64,000 bases of DNA, taken from positions 224,001 through 288,000 of the forward strand of contig CAVXXK010000003.1 of NCBI GenBank assembly GCA_963765675.1. Direction: 5' to 3'. This DNA comes from an uncultured delta proteobacterium (GTDB taxonomy: Bacteria; Desulfobacterota; Binatia; Binatales; Binataceae). Shown here one piece after another: positions 10,806 through 58,381 of the stretch. A program made the position numbers and the translations under genes. Position 1 is the stretch's first letter; every line of letters begins with the position of its first letter. Below the pieces are notes generated by a model that saw only the letters and a list, made by a program, of their open reading frames with translations, did no database searches and was not told the DNA's origin.

Positions 10806-13065
<2,260 letters not shown>

Positions 13066-13073
13066 CGGGCTTC

Positions 13074-14179
13074 TCAGAGATGCGCGGTGACTGCTCCCAT
13101 CTCGTGGGTGTCGTAGCCGCACAGCCCCGCGACCTCGCTCGCGAAGCGTGACGAGTTCATCGCTTCGAGCATCGCGCGCACCGGCATCGACGACATCTCG
13201 CCCGCGGGCACCGCAAGATCGTAACGCTCCTCGCGAATCGGCACGAAGCCGAGTCCATAAGCCTCGGCCGCGACGCGAATCGTAACGCCAAGGTCGCCGT
13301 GCCCCGCCGCGATCGCGAGCGCCACTTCGAGATGACCACTGACCTCGCGATCATAGCCCGCGATCGCCGACGGCTTCAGCTTGAGCGTGGCAATCGCGTC
13401 GTCCAGCGCGAATCGCGCGCCCGCGCCTCGCTCGCGATTTACCAGTCTCAGGCGTGGCCGTCTCAAATCTTCGTAGCCGCTGATTCCAAGCGGATTACCC
13501 GGCGCAGTCGCGAGGCCAAGCTCCCAGCTCCCAAAGCGAATGATCGCGGTGTGCCGATTCTTGAGCGCGCGGCGCACCGGACCCAGGTTGTACTCGCCGC
13601 TTTTGGTGTCGCGCAGATGGACTCCCGCAACGTGCGCGCGTCCACCGAGAAGCGCGTCGAGCGCGCCCATGCTCCCGCGCGCGAGCGCTACGATCCTGAC
13701 CGGAGCGTGGCGCCGCGCAACCCAATCGGCCAGGAGCGACACGGCCGGATCGCATCCGGCGACAATCAGCGTCGCATCGATCTCAGCCGCAGACACATAC
13801 GCTGCGACTGACGCGCGGCGGCCCGCGACCCGCTAACGATTCCGTCGGCCGCCATCAGATGATGCTGCACTGCGGCAGCCGGCACCGCGACCACGCGGCC
13901 GCCCACTCGCGCAAGGGCTACATGCGCCCCGGCCGCAAGCTTCACCGATGCGGGAACAGCAACGGCGATATCGTCGGGCGACTCGGCGCCGAACAGCGCT
14001 TCGACGGTCGCGCCGAGCTCGCGCGCCAGCGCGATCGCGACGCTGACGCCGGGCTGGTACTGCCCCGCCTCGATCGCACCGAGCGCCTGTCGTGAGATAC
14101 CCGCGCGCCGCGCGAGTTCGTTCTGGCTGAATCCGTGAGCGGCGCGGGCGCGCCGGATTTGCTCATGAGAGGAAGCCAT
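13074..14179 (-). CDS. XRE-HTH plus molybdate-type periplasmic-binding-domain regulator (frameshift near 13830)
   Basis: N-part SQNELARRAGISRQALGAIEAGQYQP; C-part AGCDPA...AGVHL...NRERGAGAR...ERYDL, in a different frame. Confidence 0.8.
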
Positions 14180-14222: not shown

Positions 14223-15230
14223 ATGAAAATGCCGGCGCGATTTCTTTTACTCGCGATGCTCGCCGCATCGATAGCCTCGACCGCATTCGCCGCGCCCGCC
14301 AGCGCGCAGTCCGCGGCGCCCTCCGCGGCAGCTTCGCCGGCCGCCGCTTCGCAGCCGCCACCCAACCCGGGAGTCGGCGGTGTGCTTCGCTACGTCATCC
14401 CGAGCCTCGCGGCTCCCCCGGCGCCTCCCCCACCGGAAGAGCCGGCGGAAGCGGGATTCAGCGGCGCACTGATGGGCTTCGTCAATGGCTGGCTCAACAT
14501 GGTCTCGCGGACCCAGGCCGAACAGCCCCACTGGATCACACCGCTGGTGACCGTGACTCCGCGCCTCGAGCAAGAGTATCGCTACGATCAATTTTTCCAG
14601 TCCGCTCGCAACGGCGTCGCGACCGACAACTTCGGCGGCAGCAAAGGCCTCGAGGTGATCCCGCAGGAAAATATCGAGACCATCATCGGCGTGCCCGGAT
14701 TTCTCAAACGCAACATCCCGCGCAACACCGACGGCTTTGCCGATTGGCCATTCCTGGTCAAGCTGCGGCTGATTTCGGCCGACGAGGAGCACGGCAACTA
14801 TATCGTGACCGCGTTCATGGGCTTCAGCGTGCCGACCGGATCCAACGTCAACGGTAACGGCCACGGTGAGTTCACGCCGACGCTCGCGTTCGGCAAGGGC
14901 CTCGGCGATTTCGATTTTCAATCGACGGTCGGGGTGACGTTTCCTGCCGGCGGCCTGGATCGGCTGGGGATGCCGCTGGCGTGGAACACCGCGTTTCAGT
15001 ATCGCATCGCGAAATACTTCTGGCCCGAGTTCGAGACCAACTACACCTGGCAGTCTTACGGATCAGATAACGGCCACAACACGTTGTACCTGACTCCGGG
15101 AGTCCTGATCGGGAGGATCCCGATTCACAACCGCGTCGGACTTACCTTCGGCGCTGGCTATCAGGTCGCGGTGACCAAATATCACAACTACAACCACAAC
15201 GTAGTCTTGACCGCGCGCATTCCGTTCTGA
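14223..15230 (+). CDS. Putative outer-membrane beta-barrel transporter
   Basis: Signal peptide, Pro-rich linker, WITPLVTVTPRLEQEYRYD, amphipathic strands, C-terminal Phe. Confidence 0.65.
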   Translation: MKMPARFLLLAMLAASIASTAFAAPASAQSAAPSAAASPAAASQPPPNPGVGGVLRYVIPSLAAPPAPPPPEEPAEAGFSGALMGFVNGWLNMVSRTQAEQPHWITPLVTVTPRLEQEYRYDQFFQSARNGVATDNFGGSKGLEVIPQENIETIIGVPGFLKRNIPRNTDGFADWPFLVKLRLISADEEHGNYIVTAFMGFSVPTGSNVNGNGHGEFTPTLAFGKGLGDFDFQSTVGVTFPAGGLDRLGMPLAWNTAFQYRIAKYFWPEFETNYTWQSYGSDNGHNTLYLTPGVLIGRIPIHNRVGLTFGAGYQVAVTKYHNYNHNVVLTARIPF

Positions 15231-43879: not shown

Positions 43880-43954
43880 GGGCGGTTAGCTCAGTGGTAG
43901 AGCATCGGCCTTACAAGCCGAGGGTCGCAGGTTCGAAACCTGCACCGCCCACCA
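43880..43954 (+). tRNA. tRNA-Val (TAC)
   Basis: Acceptor stem GGGCGGT/ACCGCCC, D-loop AGTGGTA, anticodon arm TCGGC-CTTACAA-GCCGA, T-loop GTTCGAAAC, encoded CCA. Confidence 0.97.
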
Positions 43955-44307: not shown

Positions 44308-45441
44308 CTATCCCAAGATCGCGTCGATCCGCGCCGCGGTGTCGTCCAGCGTAGCAGGCGTGATGTGCGTATAGGTGTCCAGCGTTGTACCGACACGGCT
44401 ATGCCCGAGCAGCGCCTGAACCTGCTTGGCGCTGGCGCCCGTTCTCAAACAGCACCGTCGCGCCAGTATGGCGAATATCGTGAAACCGCACGATCGGCAG
44501 TCCTGCTTTGGCGAGCGCGGATTGGAACCGATGATACACGTTGCTTGGTTCAAGTGGCGTACCGCGCCGCGACGTGAATACAAGGCCATTTGCGTTTCCT
44601 TGCCAATCGGTACCAGCCGCGAGCCGTTCTTCGATCTGGTGGACGCGCTGGCGCTTGAGCGCGGCGATCGCGCGATCCGGTAGCGTAATCGTGCGGATCG
44701 AGCTTTTGGTTTTCAGCGGCAGAAGCTGCAACCGGCCGCCTACCGCTGTAGCGATTGCCGGACGTGTAGCTCGCGCCCGTCGAGGTTCACATCGTCCCAG
44801 CGCAAGCCGCAAACCTCGCCGCGCCGCATCGCCAACGTAAAGGCCAGCACGTATAGCGAGCCAAGCGCCGCGGTTTCCGTGCTCTTGAGGAACGCCCGCG
44901 CCGCGTCCGATGTCATCGGATGGATCTCCGTCCGTTCCACTCGCGGGCCTTTTGTCATAGCCGCGACGTTGCGGATCAGTAGATTCCAGCCGACGGCCTG
45001 CTTGAGCGCGAGCGCGAGCACCATACGAATATGGCGAACGCTTTGCGGACTCGCGCCAGCCTTGAGCTTGTCATTGAGCAGTAACTGCACAGCGTCCGGC
45101 GTCAGCTTTTCGAGTCGGAATTTCCCAAGGTCCGGAACGATATGAAGCCGCACGACGGACTCGAACTTCTCATACGTGCGCGGACGGATCGAATTGCGGA
45201 CGGTATCGAGCCATCGCGCCATAAATTGCTCGACTGTGGCACCGCGCGCTGGCAGGGCAATTCCGGCGTCGCGTTTGCCGAGCAGCGAGGTTAATTCCGT
45301 CGCCACGTCCTGCCGCGTGCGCCCGTAGATGGTTTTGCGCTGGCGCTTGCCGTCGCGCCAGCCGAGCGACACGATCGCGGACCAACGGCCGTCTTTGCGT
45401 TGCGTGATTGAACCCTCGCCACGTCCGCGGTGTTTTTTCAT
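44308..45441 (-). CDS. int: Tyrosine recombinase/integrase (frameshifts near 44740 and 44435)
   Basis: N-terminal RGRGEGSITQRKDGRW arm-binding domain; catalytic MRRGE, FHDIRH, LGHS, DTYTH spread over three frames. Confidence 0.92.
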
Positions 45442-45469: not shown

Positions 45470-46416
45470 TTGTGGGGCTAGGGCTAGGGCTATCGACTTG
45501 CAGCTTTTTACGATCGCGAGCAGCCCGTGCAGCGTCGCGCGCTGGAACGCCGGCCGCTCGGCAGGTTGAGCAATAGATGCGCCTGCGCGGTTGCGTGTCC
45601 GATGGGTTCGCCTGGCGCCGGCTGGCTCGGAGACGCGAAAAACAGTCGCTCGCAGGCTGAGCATCGCGCGATTGCAGCCGCGCGAACCGTTGCGGCGACG
45701 AGCTCGAGCGCGATCAGGGCAAGGACTGATCCTGTATAGCGATTCGCGCTTAGTTGCGGACGGATGTTTCCGTCTTCGATGCCGACGCGAAAGCGCACGT
45801 CCGCGATGGCGAGCCAGCGATTCAGATTCTCCGCCAGCCGCGCGCGTGGATCCGAAAGATACTGAGCGATCGGATGCTCGGCCGCGTAGCCGTCGATTCC
45901 CTGCCATGTTTCCGCGGCAACCTTACCGCCGCGCTGCATCGTCGCCGCGGCGTCGAGCAGGCGGTTAGCGTTGACGGCGAGGGTCCGCCACTGGGCTACA
46001 GGCTCGGAAAAGAGCATCGGCCGCGTCCCAGCGCTGCGCGGCAGGCAAATCAGCGACGGGCCGGAAGCCGGATGCGGCGCGTCGGGAAACGCTGGTAACA
46101 CGTTGCAGCCCATCGTTTCGATTGGCTGATGGTAGGCGACGAAATTGTGCTGTTCGCAGAGCCACAGCGGCCCGTAGGCGCGCGCGAACTCGAGCACGTC
46201 CTGATTTCCGGGCGCGGGCGTTTCGAGTGCGAGGAAGCGCTCTAGGATTCGCCTGACCTCGATCTTGCGTGTCGTCGCTTTCGGACTCCAAACGATCCGC
46301 TCGCCAGCGAGCCTTAGCGTTTCAGGCGCCGATACGGTCGAGCCATCGATCGGGCCGCCAAGGCCGGCGCCCGTGTACAGGCTGGCGATCCGCAAAATTC
46401 CGGCTGGTTGCGTCAT
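45470..46416 (-). CDS. CGNR/ABATE-like Zn-finger protein (C-terminal frameshift; 3' end approximate)
   Basis: FARAYGPLWLC, RCSACERLFF; an alternative frame continues RRIYCSTCRAAG...RAARDRKK. Confidence 0.6.
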
Positions 46417-46563
46417 ACGAAAGTAATATGACTATTCCAAGCGCGTATGTCAAGCGGGCATACTTCGGGACGCACGGCGGCGGACGTTCTGCCGTCGAAA
46501 CGGAAACCAGTATGGCACGCGCGGACTGTGAAACATTCCGAGGCGATAAGGAGATGCACCTAT

Positions 46564-46755
46564 ATGGTTACGACGATTGATCCCAAAGCCGAGTTGCTGC
46601 GGCCCGCGAAATTCGCGCGTTTGATCGATGTATCGCGCTCAAAAGTTTACGAAATGTTGTCCGCCGGCGAGCTGCGCGGCGTGACGATCGGCGGCGTCCT
46701 GCGGATCCCGGTCGAGGAAGTCGAGCGGCTCAAGGCGCGCCCGGCGTCGGAGTAA
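46564..46755 (+). CDS. Excisionase/AlpA-like helix-turn-helix protein
   Basis: LLRPAKFARLIDVSRSKVYEMLSAGELRGVTIGGVLRIPVEEVERL; divergent from int. Confidence 0.85.
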   Translation: MVTTIDPKAELLRPAKFARLIDVSRSKVYEMLSAGELRGVTIGGVLRIPVEEVERLKARPASE

Positions 46756-46759
46756 GAGG

Positions 46760-48643
46760 GTGAGCGAACCGGACAGCCTTTCGCGCCGCGATGGCATGTA
46801 CGTCGCTATCGACGGCCGCATTTTCTCGATCAAGCGCACCGATGCGGGCGAAGAACAGTTAATCCCGTTGTGCAATTTCGACGCGCAAATCATCAGCGAC
46901 GTTTCTTGCGACGACGGCGCGGAAAAGTCGCGCGCATACGAGATTGAAGCAAACCTGAACGGGCGCACCGCGCGGTTTCGGGTCCCCGCGTCGAAGTTTG
47001 GATCGCTCGCCTGGATCGCGGAGCACGTCGGGCGCCGCGGCGTATGTCACCGCGGCGCAAGGCAGTGAGCGCAAGTTGCGCGAAGCGATCACGCGCCTGA
47101 GCGGCACAATCGCAGGGCGGACGGTTTATGCGCACACCGGCTGGACGCGCCGCGATGATGATTGGATCTTCCTTCACGCGGACGGCGCGATTGGCGCGGA
47201 TGGCGTGGTGCCTCAGATCGAAGTTGAGCTCCCGAGCGCGCTCGCGAATTTCAAACTACCTGCGCCAGCGGACGGCGAGGCTTTGCATGAAACGATCGCG
47301 GCCGCGATTGGGCTGCTTGAGCTCGCGCCTGATCGGATAACGGTACCGCTCTTCTGCGCGGCGTGGCGCGCGTCGCTCGGCCCGGTGGATTTCGCGCTCG
47401 CTCTGACGGGCAGGACGGGGAATTTCAAGACTGAGATGGCCGCACTCGCGATGCAGCACTATGGCGCGGGCTTCGATGCCCGTCACTTGCCCGCGAGCTG
47501 GTCGAGCACCGCGAATTTTCTGCGCTCGCTCGCGTTCGTTGCGAAAGATGCGCCGATCGTCGTCGATGATTTCGTGCCGACGGGAACGCGAGTTGATATC
47601 GCGCGACAGCACAAAGACGCTGCGGCGTTGCTTCGCGATTGCGGTAACGCAGCAGGGCGCGGGCGTTTAGCGTCGGACGCTTTCGATGCGCGCGATCAAG
47701 ATGCCGCGCGGACTCGTGATTTCAACCGGCGAAGAAAATTTTCGTGGTGAATCGCTACAAGGGCGATTGCTCACAATCGAAGTCACGAAGGGCGACGTTG
47801 CGGACCTGGACAAGCTGACAGATGCGCAGGATCGCGCCGCAACCGGACTGTACGTATGGGCGACGGCTGCTTACTTGCGATGGCTCGCGCCGCGGCTGGT
47901 GGATGTTCGCGCCGAACTCAAGAGCGCAATGCCTGATTTGCGCGCCAAGGCTCACAGCGCGGGAGATCATGGGCGCACGCCGGGAATTGTCGCGGACCTA
48001 TATTTCGCTGCGCAGGTATTTTTTCGATTCGCTGTCGAATGCGGCCGCGGTTCCGCAGTACCTAGCAGACACTTTTCTCGATCGAATTTGGAACGGACTG
48101 ATCGAGGCTTCAGTCGAGCACGGGAAGCACCTCCGCGACACAGAACCATGCGCGCGATTTCTGACATTGCTCCGCGCGGCGCTCGCGTCCGGCGCTGCGC
48201 ACCTGGCTGGGGTTGACGGCACGATCCCCGCCGATGCGATGGCGTGCGGGTGGCGTCTCGAGGAATTTCGCGCGCGCGAGCGCGGCGACGATCTTCGCTT
48301 GACCGGCCGTCTCCAGCCGCTTGGCGCGTGTGTCGGTTGGATCGATAACGACGAGCTTTTTCTGAACTGCGATGCCGCGCTCAAGGCAGCGAACAGCGTT
48401 GCGACGGATGGTACTCACCTAAGTATCCCCGGCGCGGTGCTGCGCAAACGACTGAAAGAAAAACGATTGCTCGCCAGCACCGGCGAAGATCGCGGCCGAT
48501 CGACAATCACTATTCTGAAAAGCATCGCCGGTGTGCGGATCGAAGTATTGCATTTCAGGCGCGAAACCATACTCCCCAGCGACGAAAAAACTTTACAGCC
48601 ACGCGAGGAAGCTAATGATCAGCGAAGCATCGCAAATTCTTGA
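46760..48643 (+). CDS. DUF927/Cch-like replicative ATPase-helicase (about three frameshifts)
   Basis: LCNFDAQI, VYAHTGW...FLHADGAIG, Walker A GRTGNFKT, Walker B IVVDDF, ISTGEE, SLQGR across four adjacent ORFs. Confidence 0.72.
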
Positions 48644-49726: not shown

Positions 49727-50992
49727 TTGCTTTTGCGATTTCCAGCGGCCGATGACGCTGTCGCGAAGCTGATCGCCGGCGCGGAAGCGTTTTTCGGCAA
49801 CCCCGAGACTCTGCTGCTACTCTCGCTGCTTCACCCGTCCGATAGCGGCGCGCTCGTCAACCAGCGCGGACGGTTCCTCGAGTCGAAGGCACTAGACTAT
49901 GTTTTGGAAATTCTTTCGCGTCACCTCAGTTGCGCCGAATTTTTTCACGCCCCGGTCGATCCTGGAGAGCGCAGCGAATTCGATACCGACGCTGACGTAT
50001 TTATCGCGCGCATCGATCGCGCGCTTGAGCAGGTGGGCGTCGAACAGATTCTTGATTGTGACGATCGCATCACATGGTGGCGAGAAGCGCCGTTACGCCG
50101 GCGATCGGGGATAGTCAGGAGCGCGACGCAAGTCGATAGGACTAGGCCCGCAAACTCCCAGCGCAGCCGCGCGGATATCGAAGAGATCCGCAACGCAATC
50201 TATGTTTTCGCGGAAGCAAATCGCCCGGTCACGGTCCGGCAGACATTCTACCATCTGATCGCGCTTTGGCTCATCGCGAAAGACGAGGCCGCGTATAAAA
50301 CCACCGTCTGCCGGCTAATGCTTGAGATGCGCCGGAGTGGCGAGCTGCCTTACGCCTGGGTCGCTGATAACACCCGCTGGATCAGAAAACCCGAGACGTT
50401 CGACTCCGTTGCCGACGCGCTTGCTGAGACCGCACGCCTATACCGTCGCGCTGTTTGGCGCGACCTGCCGGTTAATCTCGAAATTTGGGTCGAGAAGGAC
50501 AGCCTCGCCGGCGTCATCGCGGAAGAAACCGATCCCTACGACGTTCCGCTCATGGTCGCGCGGGGTTTTTCGAGCGATAGCTATTTGTGGCAAGTGTCCG
50601 AACAGATTCAGGCATCAACCAAGGCAACGCATATTTTCTACTTCGGAGACTGGGATCCGGCTGGAACGCGCGCAGATATCGGGCTCGAAGCGAAGCTACG
50701 CGGATTCTGCCCGATGTCCGATATTCACTTTGAGCGCGTCGCGCTGACGCCCGAACGGATCGAGGAATTCCATTTACCCACTCGGCCAACGAAAGGCCAG
50801 CATATGAATCGTGCGTTCAGGGGCGAATCCGTTGACCTGGATGCGCTCCCGCCTGCGGAGCTGCGCCGCCTCGTGCGAGACGTAATTGAACGCCATATTC
50901 CGGCCGGCCACATGGCCGCGATTGAAGCGGCCGAGCGGTCGGAGAAAGAAATTTTCACCAAGATTTGTGGGGTATCGGAAGCGCACAGATAA
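49727..50992 (+). CDS. Spo11/TopoVI-A-like TOPRIM protein
   Basis: PVTVRQTFYHL winged-helix-like motif, IWVEKD, ARGFSS, YFGDWDPAG, DLDAL; start uncertain. Confidence 0.72.
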   Translation: MLLRFPAADDAVAKLIAGAEAFFGNPETLLLLSLLHPSDSGALVNQRGRFLESKALDYVLEILSRHLSCAEFFHAPVDPGERSEFDTDADVFIARIDRALEQVGVEQILDCDDRITWWREAPLRRRSGIVRSATQVDRTRPANSQRSRADIEEIRNAIYVFAEANRPVTVRQTFYHLIALWLIAKDEAAYKTTVCRLMLEMRRSGELPYAWVADNTRWIRKPETFDSVADALAETARLYRRAVWRDLPVNLEIWVEKDSLAGVIAEETDPYDVPLMVARGFSSDSYLWQVSEQIQASTKATHIFYFGDWDPAGTRADIGLEAKLRGFCPMSDIHFERVALTPERIEEFHLPTRPTKGQHMNRAFRGESVDLDALPPAELRRLVRDVIERHIPAGHMAAIEAAERSEKEIFTKICGVSEAHR

Positions 50993-51082
50993 CGGCCAAG
51001 CGGGCATCAAATTGAAACGAAAAACGCTGATTATGGCTAGCGGGAGTTGTGTCACATTCTCGCGCGAAACGAGGAAAACGAA

Positions 51083-51799
51083 ATGGAAATCGAGACTGAA
51101 ACCAAGGAAATTGAATCATTGATTGACGGCGCCAAGGCCACCGTTGGTGGCGCGTGCATAGATCCGCGTCCGCGCCCGATGGCGGTGCTGGACAAAATCT
51201 GCGAACCGCTTCGACATGTGCCGGCGGATATCGCGCCGCGCCTGTACAAGGACGCGAAGATTCAAATGTTAGCAGAACGCATCCGCGATCTGATCGAACG
51301 TGGCGATTATGCAGCTATCGACTTAGCACTTAATGAAGGCCGGGCAAACGTGGCGAATGTGCTCGCATTCGAGCGGCGCGAAGGTTCCTTAAAGCCACCC
51401 AGCACCGCCGATGAGATAAAGAATCACGCGAACGCGTTTTTCGAGAACCGCTGGAACGGCAACGAAACCGGCGGCTGGCAGAAGATGCCGACTGTTCAGG
51501 AAAAGATTCAGGCCGGCCGCCACATTCGCAAGGTAACGCTTCGCTCAGTCGAGCTCGACGATGGCAGTATAGTCAGTCGTGCGGATGTTCACCGCTATGT
51601 ACTGTCGCAGCGTCCGAAATTCGGGGACACGATTTCAGATGATAAGTATCTGACGAAGTTTTTTGCGCCCGAGCGCGTTTTGATCGCAATTGAAAACGCG
51701 CGCGCAATACAAGAACAGGAACAGATCAGGAAACGGACTACCTACCAGTCAGGTCCCACATCACTCATTTCGACCCCGATTCCCGTGGAGCAGAGGTAA
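51083..51799 (+). CDS. Hypothetical protein
   Basis: GAGG RBS, 238 aa, co-oriented with neighbours; no motif recognised. Confidence 0.6.
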   Translation: MEIETETKEIESLIDGAKATVGGACIDPRPRPMAVLDKICEPLRHVPADIAPRLYKDAKIQMLAERIRDLIERGDYAAIDLALNEGRANVANVLAFERREGSLKPPSTADEIKNHANAFFENRWNGNETGGWQKMPTVQEKIQAGRHIRKVTLRSVELDDGSIVSRADVHRYVLSQRPKFGDTISDDKYLTKFFAPERVLIAIENARAIQEQEQIRKRTTYQSGPTSLISTPIPVEQR

Positions 51800-51803
51800 T
51801 TAA

Positions 51804-52214
51804 ATGACTATTCAAAATGTTTTTGTTGGCGCTCGCGACGGACTCAGCATCGCGATTTTTGATTCTGTCGGCCGAATGACGCGAAACGCGCGACTGGCAT
51901 CGAGTCGGCAAAGCATGGCGTCCTGCGTCCCCTCGCTACGGGAGATGAAGATCGGGCAAATGTGCGGGCTCACGTTCGCGCAGATCATGACCGCGAAGAA
52001 GCGCCGCGGCGGATTTCTTCAGCCGCAGGATGACTCCAAAACCGCGCTGAAAGTGCGATTCCCAGCGCCGGCCGATGCGCCCGACGACGACGATGATCCC
52101 GATGACGAGCCCGTGAACCTGGCCGCGAAGCCGATAATGCGCGTCAGATTTCCGAAAACTATCGTCGAACATCGGCCGGACGGTTTACTTCGCCGGCGCG
52201 AGGCTGACCTTTAG
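51804..52214 (+). CDS. Hypothetical protein with acidic tract
   Basis: 4 bp after the previous stop; DAPDDDDDPDDE flanked by two VRFP motifs. Confidence 0.5.
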   Translation: MTIQNVFVGARDGLSIAIFDSVGRMTRNARLASSRQSMASCVPSLREMKIGQMCGLTFAQIMTAKKRRGGFLQPQDDSKTALKVRFPAPADAPDDDDDPDDEPVNLAAKPIMRVRFPKTIVEHRPDGLLRRREADL

Positions 52215-52314
52215 TGATTATTGATATTGTCGGGGCAAGCGGTTGTAGAGAGCCGCGACCGGGCGTTCATCCTCGTGCGCGCCTGGTCAGCCCCGGCAAC
52301 CCTTTGAATGAGGT

Positions 52315-52692
52315 ATGATTTTGACTGAGAATCAAATAGCTACTTCGCCGCCGCGCGTCGTGACTCGCAAGAGGGACCAACAGGTGCGTCGGTTCGTCCG
52401 GCGCATACGCACGCTGGCGCCGCACCTCGATAACCCGATCTTTGCTCCGCAGCTTACCGGGTTCGCGCAGACTTCGCTCATGCTCGCGCAATCCTACTCG
52501 TTCGTCCGGGATCGTGGCGTAGTCGGCGAAGATGGCGAGCTACGCGCAAGTGTAGATGCGGTCCGGCGGCTGGCGGAAACGCAAGCGAGACTTGCGAAGG
52601 AACTCGGACTCACCCCGGCGACGCTACAAGCGATGGCGAAGGGCAAGCCGATCGATCTCGCCGCGCGCTTCGCTGATATTTCCGATGGCTGA
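52315..52692 (+). CDS. Terminase small subunit (P27-like)
   Basis: VRDRGVV...AKELGLTPAT motif; overlaps the terL start; GAGGT RBS. Confidence 0.75.
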   Translation: MILTENQIATSPPRVVTRKRDQQVRRFVRRIRTLAPHLDNPIFAPQLTGFAQTSLMLAQSYSFVRDRGVVGEDGELRASVDAVRRLAETQARLAKELGLTPATLQAMAKGKPIDLAARFADISDG

Positions 52693-54241
52693 TCGGCTTG
52701 AACTCTGGAAAAGAGATCCCGTTGCCTTCATCGAAGGCGGGCTGATCAACCCAGAGACAGGCCGGGCTTTTGAGCTCTACCCCGCCGAAATAGAATTTGT
52801 CCGACGTACATTCACCCTCACATCCGATGGGTGCCTTCCCTTCCCTGAAATGATTTACAGCGCGCCGAAGAAGTCCGGGAAGACCGGACTCGCGGCGATG
52901 CTCGCAATCTATGTCGCCGTCGTGATCGGCGGCCGATTCAGCGAAGTTTACTGCCTGAGCAACGGCTACGAACAATCAGAAGGACGCGTCTTCGAGGCGG
53001 CAAGGCGTATCATCGAAGCGTCGCCGCTGCTCAAGGCGAGCGCGAAGATCACGGCGGACCGAATCGAGTTTGTCAGTACCGGATGGTTCATTCAAGCATG
53101 TGCGAGTGACTATTCGGGCTTTGCTGGCGCGAACCCGTCCCTATGTATCTTCGATGAGCTTTGGGCTTACGTGTCGGAGCGAGCGCAACGGCTTTGGGAT
53201 GAAGCCGTTCCGAGCCCGACAAAGAGGGTATCCGGACGCCTGACGGTCAGCTATGCAGGTTTCGAGAGCGAATCGGAGCTCCTCGAGGGGCTGTACAAGC
53301 GCGGCCTGCAGGGCGAGGAAATCGCGCCGGCGCTTTATCGCCAAACCGGACTCTTGATGTTCTGGTCGCATGTTCCCGTCGCGCCCTGGCAGACGCCTGA
53401 ATGGCTATCTCAGATGCGGGTGCAGCTACGGCCGAATGCATACTTGCGCCTGATCGAAAATCGGTGGGTAACGAGCGAATCCAGTTTCGTGGATATGGAA
53501 TGGTTCGATGCGTGCGTCGATCACGACGCCCGTCCCGAACTTGCGGATCCGCGGCTCTCTGTGTGGTGCGGCGTTGATGCCAGCGTGAAGCGCGACTCGA
53601 CGGCAATCGTCGCATGTACGTACACCGCGAAAAAGGTTCGCCTGGTGTGGCACAAGATTTTTCAGCCGAGCGCGATCGAGCCGCTCGATTTCGAGGCGAC
53701 GATCGAGAGCACACTGATGGATCTCCGCCGGCGTTTCTATGTTCGCGAAGTGAGATATGACCCCTACCAGATGGTCGCTTCCGCGCAGCGCCTGACGGCC
53801 GCGGGGTTGCCCATGGTGGAGTTTCCGCAGAGCGTGCCGAATCTGACCGAAGCCTCAACCAATTTGTACCAAATCGTCAAGGGGCAAAATCTCACTTGCT
53901 ATCTTGACGCTGATATCCGACTAGCCATATCGCGAGCCGTCGCGATTGAGACTTCGCGCGGCTGGCGTATCTCCAAAGAAAAACAGAGCCATAAGATCGA
54001 TGTCATCGTCGCGCTCGCGCAAGCCGCACTCGGCGCCGTGCGAGGCCAGCACGCGCCTACCACCGAAAGCGATCGCAACTTCATGCGGCAGGCGGCCGCT
54101 ACGCTGCGCTTCGGCGGGGACGCGAAGCGCGGACGCGGCACTGTCGAAGCCATGGACGCGGCCGATGACGCTCGCGAGGCCGCGAATAGGCAGTCGCGAC
54201 GGCTCAACCGGTTCGTATTGACCGATCGGAAGACGTTTTGA
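52685..54241 (+). CDS. terL: Terminase large subunit
   Basis: LYPAE, Walker A APKKSGKT, Walker B CIFDELW, nuclease GVDASVKRDSTA, YDPYQ, KIDVIVALAQA; intact frame. Confidence 0.9.
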   Translation: MADRLELWKRDPVAFIEGGLINPETGRAFELYPAEIEFVRRTFTLTSDGCLPFPEMIYSAPKKSGKTGLAAMLAIYVAVVIGGRFSEVYCLSNGYEQSEGRVFEAARRIIEASPLLKASAKITADRIEFVSTGWFIQACASDYSGFAGANPSLCIFDELWAYVSERAQRLWDEAVPSPTKRVSGRLTVSYAGFESESELLEGLYKRGLQGEEIAPALYRQTGLLMFWSHVPVAPWQTPEWLSQMRVQLRPNAYLRLIENRWVTSESSFVDMEWFDACVDHDARPELADPRLSVWCGVDASVKRDSTAIVACTYTAKKVRLVWHKIFQPSAIEPLDFEATIESTLMDLRRRFYVREVRYDPYQMVASAQRLTAAGLPMVEFPQSVPNLTEASTNLYQIVKGQNLTCYLDADIRLAISRAVAIETSRGWRISKEKQSHKIDVIVALAQAALGAVRGQHAPTTESDRNFMRQAAATLRFGGDAKRGRGTVEAMDAADDAREAANRQSRRLNRFVLTDRKTF

Positions 54242-54426
54242 TGGCCTACAAGAAAAAACCGCCGCCGGGATCGCGGAGGCTGCGCAGAATCGCGTGCCCG
54301 GTTTGCCTCGCTGTGCGGCTCGATTCCGATTTTATCTGCGAAATTGAAATGTGCCCGCAGACGCAAGTGCCTATTGTCGCGACTCGCGCGCAATGGGAAG
54401 GGCGCGAGCCGGAGCACGCTAAGTGA
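54241..54426 (+). CDS. Small Cys-rich (Zn-finger-like) protein
   Basis: CPVC...CEIEMC; coupled to terL (TGATG) and to the next gene (GTGA). Confidence 0.5.
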   Translation: MAYKKKPPPGSRRLRRIACPVCLAVRLDSDFICEIEMCPQTQVPIVATRAQWEGREPEHAK

Positions 54427-54662
54427 CTACTCTCGAAATTGGAAATCTGCCCCTCACGATGACGGATTCGATGCTGTTGCAGATGTTCAGCCCGTTCGGC
54501 GCAACGACGGCGAGCATACAGATTTCGGCCAACGGGCATCCACCGCGTGCATGTGGGCTTGTCACTGTGCCAGATATTTTCCAAGCGCTCACAGCAGTCG
54601 CGACGCTCAGCAGAGCGCGAACTGCCGGTCAGGGGCCGCTGAGTGTGAGTATTAAAAATTAA
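54423..54662 (+). CDS. Degenerate RRM-fold protein (RRM-1)
   Basis: RNP2-like LEIGNL, LLQMFSPFG, RNP1-like RACGLVTV, final strand PLSVSI. Confidence 0.7.
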   Translation: MTTLEIGNLPLTMTDSMLLQMFSPFGATTASIQISANGHPPRACGLVTVPDIFQALTAVATLSRARTAGQGPLSVSIKN

Positions 54663-54675
54663 GGAAGGAAGTGAA

Positions 54676-54948
54676 ATGAAAACGCGACTATTTGTAGGAA
54701 ATTTTCCGTATCCGACGACCGAACGCGAATTGGAGGATCACTTCGCTGCGTACGGCGTCACCGATTTATTGATTTGCCGTGACCCCGGCGGCTTCAGCAA
54801 AGGCTTTGCGTTTTTGTTCGTCGAAGAGCTCGAGGGCGCACTCGCTGAGAATGAGAGGGGCTTCAACGGCCGCCGGCTTCGCGTGTCGATCGCTCGCGAT
54901 ACCTCGCGCGATTTGCGCCGTCGGGCTGCAGCGGGCGTGGTGTCGTAA
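54676..54948 (+). CDS. RRM RNA-binding protein (RRM-2)
   Basis: RNP2 LFVGNF, RNP1 KGFAFLFV, FNGRRLRVSIAR; strong AAGGAAGG RBS. Confidence 0.88.
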   Translation: MKTRLFVGNFPYPTTERELEDHFAAYGVTDLLICRDPGGFSKGFAFLFVEELEGALAENERGFNGRRLRVSIARDTSRDLRRRAAAGVVS

Positions 54949-55202
54949 TGCCAAGGCTTTTCGTCGGCGGTTTTCCTTACGCAACGGATGACGCGGAGCT
55001 ACTCGCGATCTTCAAGCGGTTCGGCGCAAGCGACGCCGAAGTCATTTACTATCGCGAGAACAGTAAACCCGCGGGCTATGGTTTCGTTTCGATAGGGAAT
55101 CCTGCGCAGGCCGCAGCCGCCATCAAGGCGCTGGACGGTACTGACTATTGCGGTCGGCGCCTGGGCGTCGAACTCGCGCGGCAGAAGCGACGAGCGGCGT
55201 GA
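54948..55202 (+). CDS. RRM RNA-binding protein (RRM-3)
   Basis: RNP2 LFVGGF, RNP1 AGYGFVSI, AIKALDG...GRRLGVELAR; TAATG overlap. Confidence 0.9.
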   Translation: MPRLFVGGFPYATDDAELLAIFKRFGASDAEVIYYRENSKPAGYGFVSIGNPAQAAAAIKALDGTDYCGRRLGVELARQKRRAA

Positions 55203-55206
55203 GCAA

Positions 55207-55449
55207 ATGGCAAAGCTTTACGTCGCCAACATCAACTACGAGCTCGACGAATCCAAACTGTTCGCCGTCTTCGCTTCATACGGCATTTCCTGGGCAAAGA
55301 TCGCGCGCGATGCTGTCGGGAGATCCCGCGGTTATGCGTTCATCGAGATTGAGGATGGGCTCACCATGCTCGCGATCGAACAGATGGATCAATCGCCGCT
55401 ATGCGGCCGGCGGCTCAAGGTTGCGGTGCCGAATGCGCGCGGAGCGTAG
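55207..55449 (+). CDS. RRM RNA-binding protein (RRM-4)
   Basis: RNP2 LYVANI, RNP1 RGYAFIEI, AIEQMD...GRRLKV. Confidence 0.9.
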   Translation: MAKLYVANINYELDESKLFAVFASYGISWAKIARDAVGRSRGYAFIEIEDGLTMLAIEQMDQSPLCGRRLKVAVPNARGA

Positions 55450-55452
55450 CCT

Positions 55453-55791
55453 CTAAGCTGCGACGCGGCGCCTGGTGCTGTGCTTCGACTCCGCGAACCG
55501 CTTGAGTATGGAGAACTCGTGATCGAGAGTGCCCACCCAGTCGCCGTCATCGCCGACGATCATTGGATCAAAGATATTGGCGAGAGCAAACACCGCGCGA
55601 AGGCGCCCGCGGTTCGGCAGGTCTCCGATAAAGTGAAATTGCTTTATTCGCCCGGCTTCCCACGCATTAAGAGCCGCGTTGGCGTCTTCCACCATCGTGC
55701 GCCGGTCAAAACCCATTTTCTCGCCTAACGTGACTGCCTCGACGCGAAGATCCTTGAGCGCGCTCGCCACCGTTTGTCCGAAACTCTTCAT
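55453..55791 (-). CDS. Hypothetical protein (element cargo)
   Basis: 112 aa with GAGGG RBS, convergent on the RRM array. Confidence 0.55.
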   Translation of the reverse strand: MKSFGQTVASALKDLRVEAVTLGEKMGFDRRTMVEDANAALNAWEAGRIKQFHFIGDLPNRGRLRAVFALANIFDPMIVGDDGDWVGTLDHEFSILKRFAESKHSTRRRVAA

Positions 55792-55919
55792 GTTTTGTCC
55801 CTCTGTTCTCATCCTGTATCACTGTAGCTAATTACCGTCAATATGCAGAGAATAGCTACTTTCTGGTACAGTATCTAGTACACTTTCTAGAATGTGATGG
55901 CGGCGTCACGCGACGATCT

Positions 55920-56321
55920 TTAACGACGTTGGCTATCATCGCGGCCGGCCGCGATAAAGACGGTCTCTTTCTCGGTGAGGCCGCTTAAGTCCAACCCTAC
56001 GGCGGTCGTCGGATCACCTTGACGGATCCCAAGGAACATTAGGCGTAACTCGCGAATTTTTTCCCAGCATTCCTCTAAGATGGTGTGAACGTCTGACTCC
56101 AACTTGTCGAGGCCGAAGCTTTCAAAGACGTGCCCTGTGCCCGCCTGGCGAATTTGCCCGTCCCGCGCTGGATGTACGCTGAGCCAGTCGGCGACGATCC
56201 ACTGATACCGCGGACCCGTTCCTCGCTGCGCGAAGTCAAGTAAGCGGTCCCGAGCGCGGATGAATTCATCCTTGCATTTCAGCCACTGCTCGCCTGTCGT
56301 TGGTCTTATGTCTCTGCCCAT
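55920..56321 (-). CDS. Hypothetical protein (element cargo)
   Basis: 133 aa with GGGGGTG RBS, just downstream of the right TGATCA array. Confidence 0.5.
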   Translation of the reverse strand: MGRDIRPTTGEQWLKCKDEFIRARDRLLDFAQRGTGPRYQWIVADWLSVHPARDGQIRQAGTGHVFESFGLDKLESDVHTILEECWEKIRELRLMFLGIRQGDPTTAVGLDLSGLTEKETVFIAAGRDDSQRR

Positions 56322-56332
56322 TTTCACCCCCC

Positions 56333-56453
56333 TGATCATATTTTATGATCAATTGATCATATAATTTTTACAACATGATCAGGCAAGCTACCTAAATTCT
56401 CTTTTGTTCTCTTGCGCTTTTTGAGCAAATGATCACATTGATCATAATGATCA
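56333..56453. repeat. Right-end TGATCA array
   Basis: TGATCA at 56333, 56346, 56354, 56376, 56430, 56439, 56448; 56430-56445 equals 44277-44292. Confidence 0.8.
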
Positions 56454-56675: not shown

Positions 56676-56725
56676 TCGGCCTTACAAGCCGAGGGTCGCA
56701 GGTTCGAAACCTGCACCGCCCACCA
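56676..56725 (+). repeat. attR: 50-bp duplication of the tRNA-Val 3' part
   Basis: TCGGCCTTACAAGCCGAGGGTCGCAGGTTCGAAACCTGCACCGCCCACCA, identical to 43905-43954. Confidence 0.95.
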
Positions 56726-56749: not shown

Positions 56750-57214
56750 CTATGGAGTAGTCGTCGTGGTCGTGGAGGTCTGAGACGGATTGTCTCCATT
56801 CCCGTTCCACGAAGTGGTGGTCTGCTTCTGTACCGAACCGTCGGCAGAGGTTGTCGTTCTCTTCTGCACCGTGGTTCCGTTTCCCCAATTCGAAGACGTA
56901 GTTGTTTCGACCGGTGCCGGCGCCATCATAACCGGGGCTACCTGCACGACGGGCGACGGAGCCATCATGACGGGCGCACCGGTTACCACCGTCGAGTAAC
57001 CGGGCGTGGTGCTCATCACGGTACCGTTGGGATATTGAGTCGTGGTCGTGGTGCTGCTGGTGGTTATGGGCGGCGGCGCGACGTACACGGGGGACGCAGT
57101 TGTGGAATATTCAGTGGTCGTCGTTGTGGGCGGCACCTCTTCGGCGCAAGCGCCGATAAAACCGACCGATATCGCGACTGCAGCCGCTAAGGCGACGTTT
57201 TTCAGAAGTTTCAT
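56750..57214 (-). CDS. Thr/Pro-rich predicted lipoprotein
   Basis: MKLLKNVALAAAVAISVGFIGAC lipobox, poly-Thr tracts, repeated APVMMAP and QKxTTTS. Confidence 0.75.
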   Translation of the reverse strand: MKLLKNVALAAAVAISVGFIGACAEEVPPTTTTTEYSTTASPVYVAPPPITTSSTTTTTQYPNGTVMSTTPGYSTVVTGAPVMMAPSPVVQVAPVMMAPAPVETTTSSNWGNGTTVQKRTTTSADGSVQKQTTTSWNGNGDNPSQTSTTTTTTP

Positions 57215-57573
57215 TGCTGGATTTCCTCCATTGGGGACTTCGCTCCGGCAGCAGGGAGCCAGAGCGCGGATGGTACACAAAAGCCTGCTGCGCGAGCCTT
57301 CGATCCGCGTGTTTTGAGGTTGGTCTAGCGGGAGGTGGTCAAGGCGAGCGCAACGCCCACCGTAGAGCCAAATCAGATTCGGACTCGATTCCTATATCGA
57401 TCCCTACTTACTCACTTTACATCGGATGTGATGCAAAAGCATCGCAAAGATTTTTTCATTTGGTTATGTAGGGGACGAAATCTCGGTTCGAAAGGCCGGC
57501 CCATAGCCTCGTCTGTAGGCATCTGCGGTTGGCTCCTCGCCGCTTACTCACCTTCCAGCGGGCTGACGGCGCC

Positions 57574-57615
57574 ACAAGCCGCGGGTCGCAGGTTCGAAAC
57601 CTTCACCGCCCGCCA
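57574..57615 (+). repeat. Degraded second copy of the tRNA-Val 3' end (old att scar)
   Basis: ACAAGCCGCGGGTCGCAGGTTCGAAACCTTCACCGCCCGCCA, three mismatches to the tRNA. Confidence 0.8.
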
Positions 57616-57696: not shown

Positions 57697-57740
57697 TTGA
57701 GGCTGCTCCTGGTATGGCCGTATAATCGGCTGGTATGGCC
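57697..57740 (+). promoter_or_regulatory. Sigma70-like promoter with operator-like direct repeat
   Basis: TTGAGG-18 bp-TATAAT; CTGGTATGGCC repeated at 57709 and 57730, the second overlapping the ATG. Confidence 0.55.
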
Positions 57741-58019
57741 CGAATATCAATCAAATCAACTTACGCTCTCGATGTTGAAACGGTCCGCAAACTTGACCGG
57801 ATGGCCGTCCGTTGGAAGGTCTCGAAATCGGAAGTCTTGCGCCGCGCGATTGATGTGGTAGCCCGCGATCAACCCGACGAAACACCGTCCCGATTGCAAG
57901 CGCTGGACGAATTGCAGAAGAGTGTGAAACTCACCACACAACGGACTGACAATTGGTCGCGCGAGGTTCGCGCCGAGCGCGAAAAGACCTCGGCTCGGCA
58001 CGAATGGCGCAAGCGATAA
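57735..58019 (+). CDS. CopG/ribbon-helix-helix antitoxin
   Basis: STYALDVETVRKLDRMA...VSKSEVLRRAI; overlaps the PIN gene. Confidence 0.82.
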   Translation: MARISIKSTYALDVETVRKLDRMAVRWKVSKSEVLRRAIDVVARDQPDETPSRLQALDELQKSVKLTTQRTDNWSREVRAEREKTSARHEWRKR

Positions 58020-58381
58020 TTCACCTCGATACGAGTTTTCTAATCCGGGCGTTGAGTCCGAATTCCAGCGAAGATAAGCAGTTGCGCCGCTGGATGGCGG
58101 AGGGGACCGCGCTCGGCATGAGTGCCATCGGATGGACCGAGTTTCTGTGCGGTCCTCTGAACCAGCGCCAACTTGCGCTGGCCGCGGCGATTGTCGGCGA
58201 TCCGGAGCCTTTCGTTGCGGAGGATTCGAGTAAGACTGCGGAGCTCTTCAACCTGTCGGGACGCCGCCGAGGCTCGCTTATCGATTGCATGATCGCCGCG
58301 ATCGCGATCAGGACGGGAGCGAGTCTCGCCACCGCGAATCGGAGCGATTTCCGGCGTTTCTCCGGCCTGCGCCTCGAGTAG
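58004..58381 (+). CDS. vapC: VapC-type PIN-domain toxin
   Basis: IHLDTSFLI, WTEF, DCMIAAIA, LATANRSDF. Confidence 0.88.
   Translation: MAQAIIHLDTSFLIRALSPNSSEDKQLRRWMAEGTALGMSAIGWTEFLCGPLNQRQLALAAAIVGDPEPFVAEDSSKTAELFNLSGRRRGSLIDCMIAAIAIRTGASLATANRSDFRRFSGLRLE

Follow-up and report, generated by a model that had tools for sequence, protein, structure and literature searches.

Proteins with an RNA recognition motif (RRM) are the chief RNA binders in eukaryotes and are poorly understood in bacteria. Here, we analyse an array of four single-RRM genes (RRM1 to RRM4) that lies in the terminase operon of a tRNA-integrated island in an uncultured soil bacterium of the Binataceae; the window, the whole stretch of DNA that was analysed, covers 64,000 nucleotides of contig CAVXXK010000003.1. 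The closest described proteins are the bacterial single-RRM proteins of the Rbp type, namely the cyanobacterial Rbp family with members such as Rbp3, the RRM-1 family of Bacteroides and AB-Elavl of Acinetobacter (PMC12232666, PMC13370968, PMC9313427). They have the same single RRM_1 domain of ~80 aa as the island proteins, and RRM2, RRM3 and RRM4 have the same canonical RNP motifs. The best bacterial model is NCBIfam Rbp_regulator (NF058537), on which RRM1 to RRM4 reach 17.3, 30.2, 56.2 and 51.9 bits and stay below the cut-off of 100. In contrast to Rbp, the island RRMs have no Gly/Arg-rich tail and stand apart from the host Rbps in a tree. They also occur in arrays, together with a zinc-ribbon-like partner protein (ZnR), inside the terminase operon of a mobile island.

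The island itself can be compared with the phage-inducible chromosomal islands (PICIs). According to the main text of PMC10085698, a PICI is defined by an integrase, a regulator, a primase-replicase, capsid morphogenesis genes and terS, with accessory genes often following terS, and the capsid-forming PICIs (cfPICIs) add terL and the genes for capsid, protease, portal and connector. The same main text uses the term 'RNA-binding' 0 times; the accessory tables of its supplements could hold RRM genes. By this description (PMC10085698), the Binataceae islands resemble PICIs: they span 12-15 kb, have an integrase at a tRNA attachment site (att), an AlpA-type regulator, a primase-like region and a putative terS, and place accessory genes behind the packaging genes. 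Unlike in PICIs, a gene for capsid morphogenesis could not be recognised, the hosts belong to a new phylum, and no helper phage was found. With the cfPICIs they share terL, a marker of that group, but genes for capsid, portal, protease or connector were not found. The islands consist of a PICI-like left half followed by terS and terL without capsid genes, and they fit neither the PICI nor the cfPICI definition.

The original prediction, made from the letters of this DNA, knew of no satellite with an RRM array behind terL, and our literature search on RRM proteins in prophages, phages and satellites found no description either. The csp genes in cryptic prophages of E. coli are an analogue, as they place an RNA chaperone on a mobile element. 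The FinO/ProQ family of plasmids and phages and the LSm-like proteins of phages are further cases of mobile elements with a small RNA-binding protein of their own, as here (PMC9977716, PMC12152347). FinO/ProQ, LSm-like and csp proteins belong to other fold families, however, and none of them is known from a terminase operon or as an array. Viral RRM proteins have the RRM fold in common with the island proteins. A comparison of RRM1 with BFVD gave 3 matches at E <= 1e-3, all from giant eukaryotic viruses; the best phage match has an E of 0.019 and a TM of 0.50.

The terminase operon and its four RRM proteins

At the right end of the island, the genes follow each other in the order terS, terL, ZnR, RRM1, RRM2, RRM3 and RRM4. 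Four open reading frames (ORFs) of 79-90 aa with RNP2 and RNP1 motifs had been predicted here, and both their coordinates and the quoted motifs are exact. All four score above the gathering cut-off of RRM_1 (PF00076), which is 20.7 bits.

52315..52692, + strand: putative terS (Terminase_4 15.2 bits, E 0.029, below cut-off), overlapping terL
52556..54241, + strand: terL (phrog_9, E 4.2e-54; Pfam TerL_ATPase and TerL_nuclease above cut-off)
54238..54426, + strand: ZnR, 61-62 aa, 4-Cys protein (pattern CPxC, 10-12 residues, C, 4 residues, CP; invariant Trp)
54423..54662, + strand: RRM1, 79 aa, GTG start (RRM_1 31.8 bits, E 1.3e-7; RNP motifs LEIGNL / RACGLVTV)
54676..54948, + strand: RRM2, 90 aa (RRM_1 43.3 bits, E 3.3e-11; canonical RNP motifs LFVGNF / KGFAFLFV)
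54948..55202, + strand: RRM3, 84 aa (RRM_1 52.3 bits, E 5.4e-14; canonical RNP motifs LFVGGF / AGYGFVSI)
55207..55449, + strand: RRM4, 80 aa (RRM_1 36.0 bits, E 6.3e-9; canonical RNP motifs LYVANI / RGYAFIEI)

The operon is as tight as had been claimed, with stops and starts that overlap or nearly abut. The stop of terL overlaps the start of ZnR (TGATG), the stop of ZnR overlaps the start of RRM1 (GTGA) and the stop of RRM2 overlaps the start of RRM3 (TAATG), while RRM2 is preceded by a strong Shine-Dalgarno sequence (AAGGAAGG) and RRM3 and RRM4 are separated by a gap of 4 nt. No terminator-like site was detected within the operon in a promoter and terminator scan, which returned fewer sites than shuffled sequence and nothing usable. 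The true start of terL likely lies near 52685 (MADRLELWKRDP...). The weak label in the operon is terS, which is assigned by its position and by homologues of 29-66% identity that lie upstream of terL in 8/8 other loci with the same gene order.

Alignments of ZnR contain the invariant residues C20, C23, C34, C39, P40 and W53, with the Trp coming after a basic stretch. No family in Pfam, PHROGs, NCBIfam or PADLOC was found for this protein. Since its AlphaFold2 (AF2) model has a pLDDT of 69 and no PDB neighbour (best E 6.2), it is the Cys pattern that gives the protein its zinc-ribbon label. A complex prediction for RRM1 with ZnR gave no answer (score 0.00) and neither supports nor opposes binding.

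The four RRM proteins are mutually divergent, as expected, with pairwise identities of 21-37%. RNA-stacking aromatics were scored at position 2 of RNP2 and at positions 3 and 5 of RNP1, and RRM2, RRM3 and RRM4 contain 3/3 each. RRM1 contains 0/3. Its sole relative, P0012, is 75% identical, has the same non-aromatic RNP motifs and also contains 0/3; because this orthologue keeps the degenerate motifs, the degeneracy of RRM1 is a maintained state. The idea of a panel of RNA binders with different specificities is thus half right: RRM2 to RRM4 keep the aromatics, whereas RRM1 and its orthologue have lost all three. RRM4 likewise has one relative at 75% identity, P0010. None of the RRMs falls into a PHROGs family, and neither the module proteins nor their neighbours match a PADLOC defence model.

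Modelling was carried out for RRM1, the weakest member of the array. It yields the predicted RRM fold, with a pLDDT of 90.3 and the element order beta-alpha-beta-beta-alpha-beta. The top PDB matches of this model are RRMs, the best of them being HuR RRM3 with a TM of 0.83, and Acinetobacter AB-Elavl (PDB 7qzp) is among the matches.

Recurrence and rarity of the gene order behind terL

The synteny of terL and RRM genes is not confined to the window. The order terL, ZnR and RRM, with 1-4 RRM copies, was found at 9 distinct loci, 8 of them in 5 Binataceae genomes and 1 on a metagenome contig (L101). The array in the window is an expanded version of a conserved accessory module, composed of one zinc-ribbon-like protein and 1-4 single-RRM proteins, which closes the terS-terL operon in a family of 12-15-kb tRNA-integrated islands of the Binataceae. 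RRM genes stand beside ZnR at two loci in the window genome G000 (the window and contig C2), at three in G004 and at one each in G475, G481 and G461, and the copy numbers at these 8 genome loci are 4, 2, 2, 2, 2, 2, 1 and 1. An island-type RRM is always accompanied by ZnR (9/9 loci), and none was seen without it. In G004, which belongs to the same genus as the window genome, two loci show the order terS, terL, ZnR and two RRMs. Contig C2 carries an intact integrase, a primase-helicase, a terL of the other family in pieces, ZnR and two RRMs, the second of them frameshifted. The module stands behind two unrelated terL families, phrog_9-type and phrog_38-type; at four module loci, terL is a phrog_38-type protein of 519-521 aa (E 7.8e-118). 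Three of the islands are bounded by att sites and measure 12-15 kb, namely the window island, a 12.2-kb sister at tRNA-Ser and a 14.8-kb sister at tRNA-Phe, both sisters having tRNA-derived repeats at their ends. The candidate P0014 (133 aa) was rejected as a ZnR-RRM fusion on inspection of its sequence.

Two side observations concern individual module loci. At L065:12827-14617 (G481) and L066:13521-15314 (G461), we find a tape-measure-like protein of 596-597 aa (phrog_28, E 7.8e-30), with no other tail gene recognised. At L068:10230-10541 (G475:C14), ~2 kb upstream of terL, lies a 12-nt-periodic ACC/GCG/ACT-rich array with 18 overlapping copies.

Outside these loci, the module is rare. Relatives of terL are present in 13/60 related genomes searched, and the ZnR profile matches 14 of 165 Binataceae genomes at E <= 1e-3; these tallies include G027, which has a terL match without RRM, and G465, which has a weak ZnR-like match without RRM, and none of the individual findings here depends on these two genomes. 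Across 401 genomes of the phylum, a sample with only 4 Binataceae, ZnR gave only weak matches outside its own genome (best E 1.7e-3). The ZnR family comprises 8 clusters among 5.8 billion, and an exhaustive search of 1.84 billion representative proteins returned 14 of them at E <= 1e-3. Deposited phage records are almost devoid of RRM genes: out of 50,697, 2 match RRM3 at E <= 1e-3, and these are two versions of the record of a single Acinetobacter jumbo phage of 220 kb. A metagenome scan by terL alignment gave 402 relatives, of which 80 were kept; 48 of these have at least 1 kb downstream and are assessable. The module is present in 0/25 assessable viral contigs of IMG/VR. Four soil-metagenome DNA runs from one study share 0.11-0.15 of the locus, their contigs spanning 52303-53610 only (90-99% likeness), and no RNA run containing the locus was found among the sequencing runs searched.

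The position after terL was originally taken to be the normal place of portal or head genes. This holds for phages; distant viral relatives of terL (27-42% identity) have an ORF of 620-720 aa, a candidate portal gene, directly after terL. It does not hold for PICI-type satellites, where the main text of PMC10085698 describes this position as the usual accessory site, and close terL relatives carry variable small genes there, followed by the island end (integrase, tRNA or AlpA-like gene). A fused CxxC...C/H ribbon is present in 7/74 distinct C-terminal tails of terL (L102, L107/L108, L117, L119, L129, L163 and L029), and in L104 and L162 a separate, different small Cys-rich ORF directly follows terL. 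The ZnR profile picks up neither the fused ribbons nor these two Cys-rich ORFs. In this terminase clade, small zinc ribbons seem to recur as an accessory.

Both terL families end in a common basic Trp-containing tail. The islands G004:C71 (L021/L070) and G004:C121 (L067) are homologous except for their unrelated terL genes, phrog_9-type in one and phrog_38-type in the other, and this difference looks like a replacement of terL by recombination. Their DNA similarity resumes ~75 nt before the terL stop, so that both terL proteins have the same tail (...DDARADARR...RRSRWAGY), which travels with the ZnR-RRM block. The shared tail was rejected as a module-specific feature, since like tails occur in L104, L106, L112 and L113 without the module.

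Several of these observations bear on a role in packaging, in which ZnR and the RRMs would work with the terminase, either by binding single-stranded DNA or pac-site DNA or by docking the terminase on the helper portal. Such a role would agree with the placement of the module, always directly after terL and behind two unrelated terL families, with a terL tail (...RRSRWAGY) that moves along with the ZnR-RRM block, with the invariant Trp after the basic stretch of ZnR and with the ribbons fused to terL. ZnR-like ORFs with the same motif also exist without RRM, one of them ~500 nt downstream of a 77% identical terL, and the degenerate RNP of RRM1 is conserved in its orthologue. In RRMs of the U2AF-homology motif (UHM) type, a degenerate RNP goes along with a loop of the form Arg-X-Phe, and the acidic helix A binds basic peptides that contain Trp. 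By analogy, RRM1 could be a UHM-like binder of the Trp-containing basic tails on TerL or ZnR; it has the degenerate RNP, and no Arg-X-Phe motif is evident in its sequence. We regard a packaging role as distinctly unlikely, however. The module is missing from 45/48 assessable close terL relatives, the basic Trp tail is also present in the four module-less loci named above, the fused ribbons escape the ZnR profile, and RRM2 to RRM4 keep the canonical RNA-binding residues.

Evolution of the RRM genes and integrity of the island

The Binataceae genomes examined contain 4-6 conserved host RRM genes each, which score 73-85 bits and in some cases carry Gly-rich tails; scores of the island RRMs are 28-67 bits. 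When 41 RRM domains were placed in a maximum-likelihood tree, 25 host copies are split from 16 island copies by a branch with 95/92 support, with very short tips on the host side and long tips on the island side. The comparison with host copies thus sets the island RRMs apart; because the root of the tree is unknown, the island group may be a grade and not a clade. Long branches make the internal placements unsure. RRM1 and RRM3 of the window group with the first ('A-type') RRMs of G004 (support 81/81), and RRM2 and RRM4 have no resolved placement.

Tandem RRM genes are also found on host chromosomes, as pairs of a Gly-rich-tailed Rbp followed by a divergent paralogue (G000:C1:1241647-1242525; G475:C35:496035-496735; G481:C8:14461-15159). 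Since this pair is conserved, tandem RRM genes are also a chromosomal habit of the lineage.

In one explanation of the array, the RRM genes would be host-beneficial 'moron' cargo, extra RNA chaperones for cold or stress that play no part in the cycle of the element, with the prophage csp genes of E. coli as an analogue. The genes do sit in the variable stretch from the packaging genes to attR, the Binataceae depend on conserved Rbp paralogues of which each genome has 4-6, the chromosomal tandem pairs included, and RRM 'RNA-binding protein' genes are known on 28 of 72,556 plasmids. We consider cargo of this kind unlikely, because the array is translationally coupled to terL and ZnR and has no promoter-like site of its own, and because the island RRMs form a separate group without Gly-rich tails that evolves much faster than the host Rbps. 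The co-occurrence of ZnR at 9/9 loci and an RRM1 that by its sequence is not competent for RNA binding fit poorly with a set of chaperones as well.

Comparison of the three G004 islands gives dN/dS values of 0.21-0.32 for RRM-A, 0.26-0.33 for RRM-B and 0.33-0.47 for ZnR. The RRM and ZnR genes are fast-evolving under purifying selection, and neutral evolution does not describe them. A mosaic is seen in L101:1505-2489, where terL-ZnR is 86% identical in DNA to G004:C7, the first RRM is like that of G004:C121 and the second RRM is of a type seen nowhere else. This mosaic suggests cassette-like shuffling of RRM genes.

Fast evolution, a copy number of 1-4 and mosaic RRM cassettes are typical of arms-race genes, and the variable accessory position is as in the satellites that carry defence genes according to the main text of PMC10085698. 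The module could on these grounds be conflict cargo, an anti-defence or defence device that, for example, sequesters a host defence RNA or a helper transcript, along the lines of the original proposal that the array counters RNA-based host defence. This seems to us quite improbable: no module protein has a PADLOC match, dN/dS is well under 1, the Rfam scan of the island gave no target RNA family, and the literature search gave no known RRM-based defence or anti-defence system.

The island that carries the operon measures 12.8 kb and is integrated at tRNA-Val, with attL and attR forming a perfect 50-nt direct repeat. Its further features are:

43880..43954, + strand: tRNA-Val(TAC) (ARAGORN; Rfam tRNA 77.3 bits); its 3' 50 nt (43905-43954) are attL
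44362..45441, - strand: tyrosine integrase, broken (Phage_int_SAM_3 52 bits and the start of Phage_integrase)
45508..46416, - strand: 302-aa ORF with coding-like GC3 (G+C at third codon positions); no significant Pfam, PHROG or PADLOC match
46447..46755, + strand: AlpA/excisionase-type HTH_17 regulator (PF12728 35 bits, cut-off 27)
46998..48643, + strand: primase/helicase-like region of three overlapping ORFs (46998-47750, 47686-48216, 47822-48643); DUF927 18 bits, below cut-off
49727..50992, + strand: 421-aa phrog_6247 protein (PHROGs label 'DNA topoisomerase'), E 7.4e-48
51047..52214, + strand: two ORFs of 250 aa (51047-51799) and 136 aa (51804-52214), no family match
55453..56339, - strand: two convergent ORFs of 119 aa (55453-55812) and 139 aa (55920-56339) between RRM4 and attR, no family match
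56676..56725, + strand: attR, repeating the 3' 50 nt of tRNA-Val without mismatch (repeat family D1, 100% identity; Rfam partial tRNA)

The phrog_6247 protein has a 69% identical homologue in the island of G004:C121, and the 250-aa ORF has homologues of 30-35% identity in 4/8 other module loci compared. The ORFs of 119 aa and 139 aa were rejected as members of the module; as homologues are lacking from all 8 other module loci compared, they represent variable cargo. No capsid, portal or tail family was found among the island ORFs tested against Pfam and PHROGs, and neither PF05065 (HK97-type capsid) nor PF04860 (Phage_portal) has a match anywhere in the genome, which is 95.6% complete. Because terminase genes are present and capsid and portal genes were not found, the island is satellite-like, as originally described, and the islands of the family look like phage satellites on the same grounds. 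Apart from the tRNA and the attR remnant, all Rfam matches in the island are below the gathering scores.

Beyond attR, a third copy of the tRNA-Val 3' end is found at 57566-57615, 890 nt past attR; it is degenerate (86%). Between the two, the minus strand has an ORF (56750-57280) that is rich in Thr and Pro and whose start is signal-peptide-like. The segment 56726-57615 has the look of a scar left by an earlier or a tandem integration event at this tRNA. Past the third copy, at 57735-58381, a 94-aa ORF overlaps a 142-aa ORF; judged from their translations, these look like a VapB/RHH-type antitoxin and a PIN-type toxin.

In the window, the integrase (44362-45441) and the primase-like gene (46998-48643) are split across frames. 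The N-terminal half of the integrase is a 233-aa ORF (44740-45441), and its catalytic half was located in frame -2 at 44916-44362 by tblastn with the intact C2 integrase as query; the frame change could be genuine or stem from an indel in the assembly. Clear primase-helicases are found in sister islands where the window has the fragmented DUF927-like region. On contig C2 (L035), terL (12600-14000) and the second RRM (14471-14731) are likewise split.

Such breaks raise the possibility that the RRM ORFs are decaying leftovers in a dead island, to which the frameshifted integrase and primase-like genes of the window and the frameshifted second RRM of C2 would conform. This explanation is already disfavoured, and we give it hardly any credence. 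All four ORFs of the window are intact, RRM_1-positive and have coupled starts, purifying selection acts among the sister islands, intact relatives of 75% identity exist for both RRM1 and RRM4, and RRM1 is modelled with high confidence.

A possible post-transcriptional role of the module

We rate as most likely, although with considerable reserve, that the module has a post-transcriptional nucleic-acid-binding role in the active phase of the element. On induction of the island, the module would be co-transcribed and co-translated with the terminase. RRM2, RRM3 and RRM4, with their intact RNP motifs, are predicted to bind single-stranded RNA, possibly also single-stranded DNA, and could act post-transcriptionally on transcripts of the island, the helper phage or the host. 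RRM1, with its degenerate RNP, may be a protein-binding or adaptor subunit.

A number of points weigh against such a role. By its sequence, RRM1 is without RNA-stacking residues, and the strict adjacency to terL would fit a packaging-related role equally. The module is present in 3/48 assessable metagenome terL loci, each with ZnR and two RRMs; two of the three lie on contigs identical to those of G004 loci, and the third is L101. As it is rare even among close terL relatives, it is not needed for this type of element. With its split integrase and primase-like genes, the window element may be defective, and in the C2 copy terL is fragmented and the second RRM frameshifted; long-read indel errors could explain both cases.

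The two functions could also be joined. ZnR and the RRMs may form a terminase-coupled ribonucleoprotein system, in which the canonical RRMs would capture helper or host transcripts or a packaging RNA cofactor, and RRM1 together with ZnR would tether them to the terminase. Satellites would then possess a weapon or tool of a new kind, one that operates on RNA. We hold this combination to be improbable as well. As for the original prediction, its structural observation is confirmed and extended, and its interpretation is partly supported; that the RRM proteins are a panel of RNA binders directed against a helper phage is a hypothesis.

RRMs are almost unknown in phages, and here they are a conserved, selected and translationally coupled part of a packaging operon. 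The island family was previously undescribed, and its host phylum is uncultured. An island type with terS and terL only lies between PICI and cfPICI, and its terL has been swapped between two families while the distal module was kept. If a terminase-coupled ribonucleoprotein system were true, satellites would control the late-gene expression or the packaging choice of their helper, and conflict between viruses and satellites in prokaryotes would have its first mechanism based on RRMs. Should the module act on RNA, the known ways in which satellites, helpers and hosts interact would come to include post-transcriptional control by RRM proteins, and the islands would offer a compact natural set of divergent bacterial RRMs, together with one conserved 'pseudo-RRM', for study.

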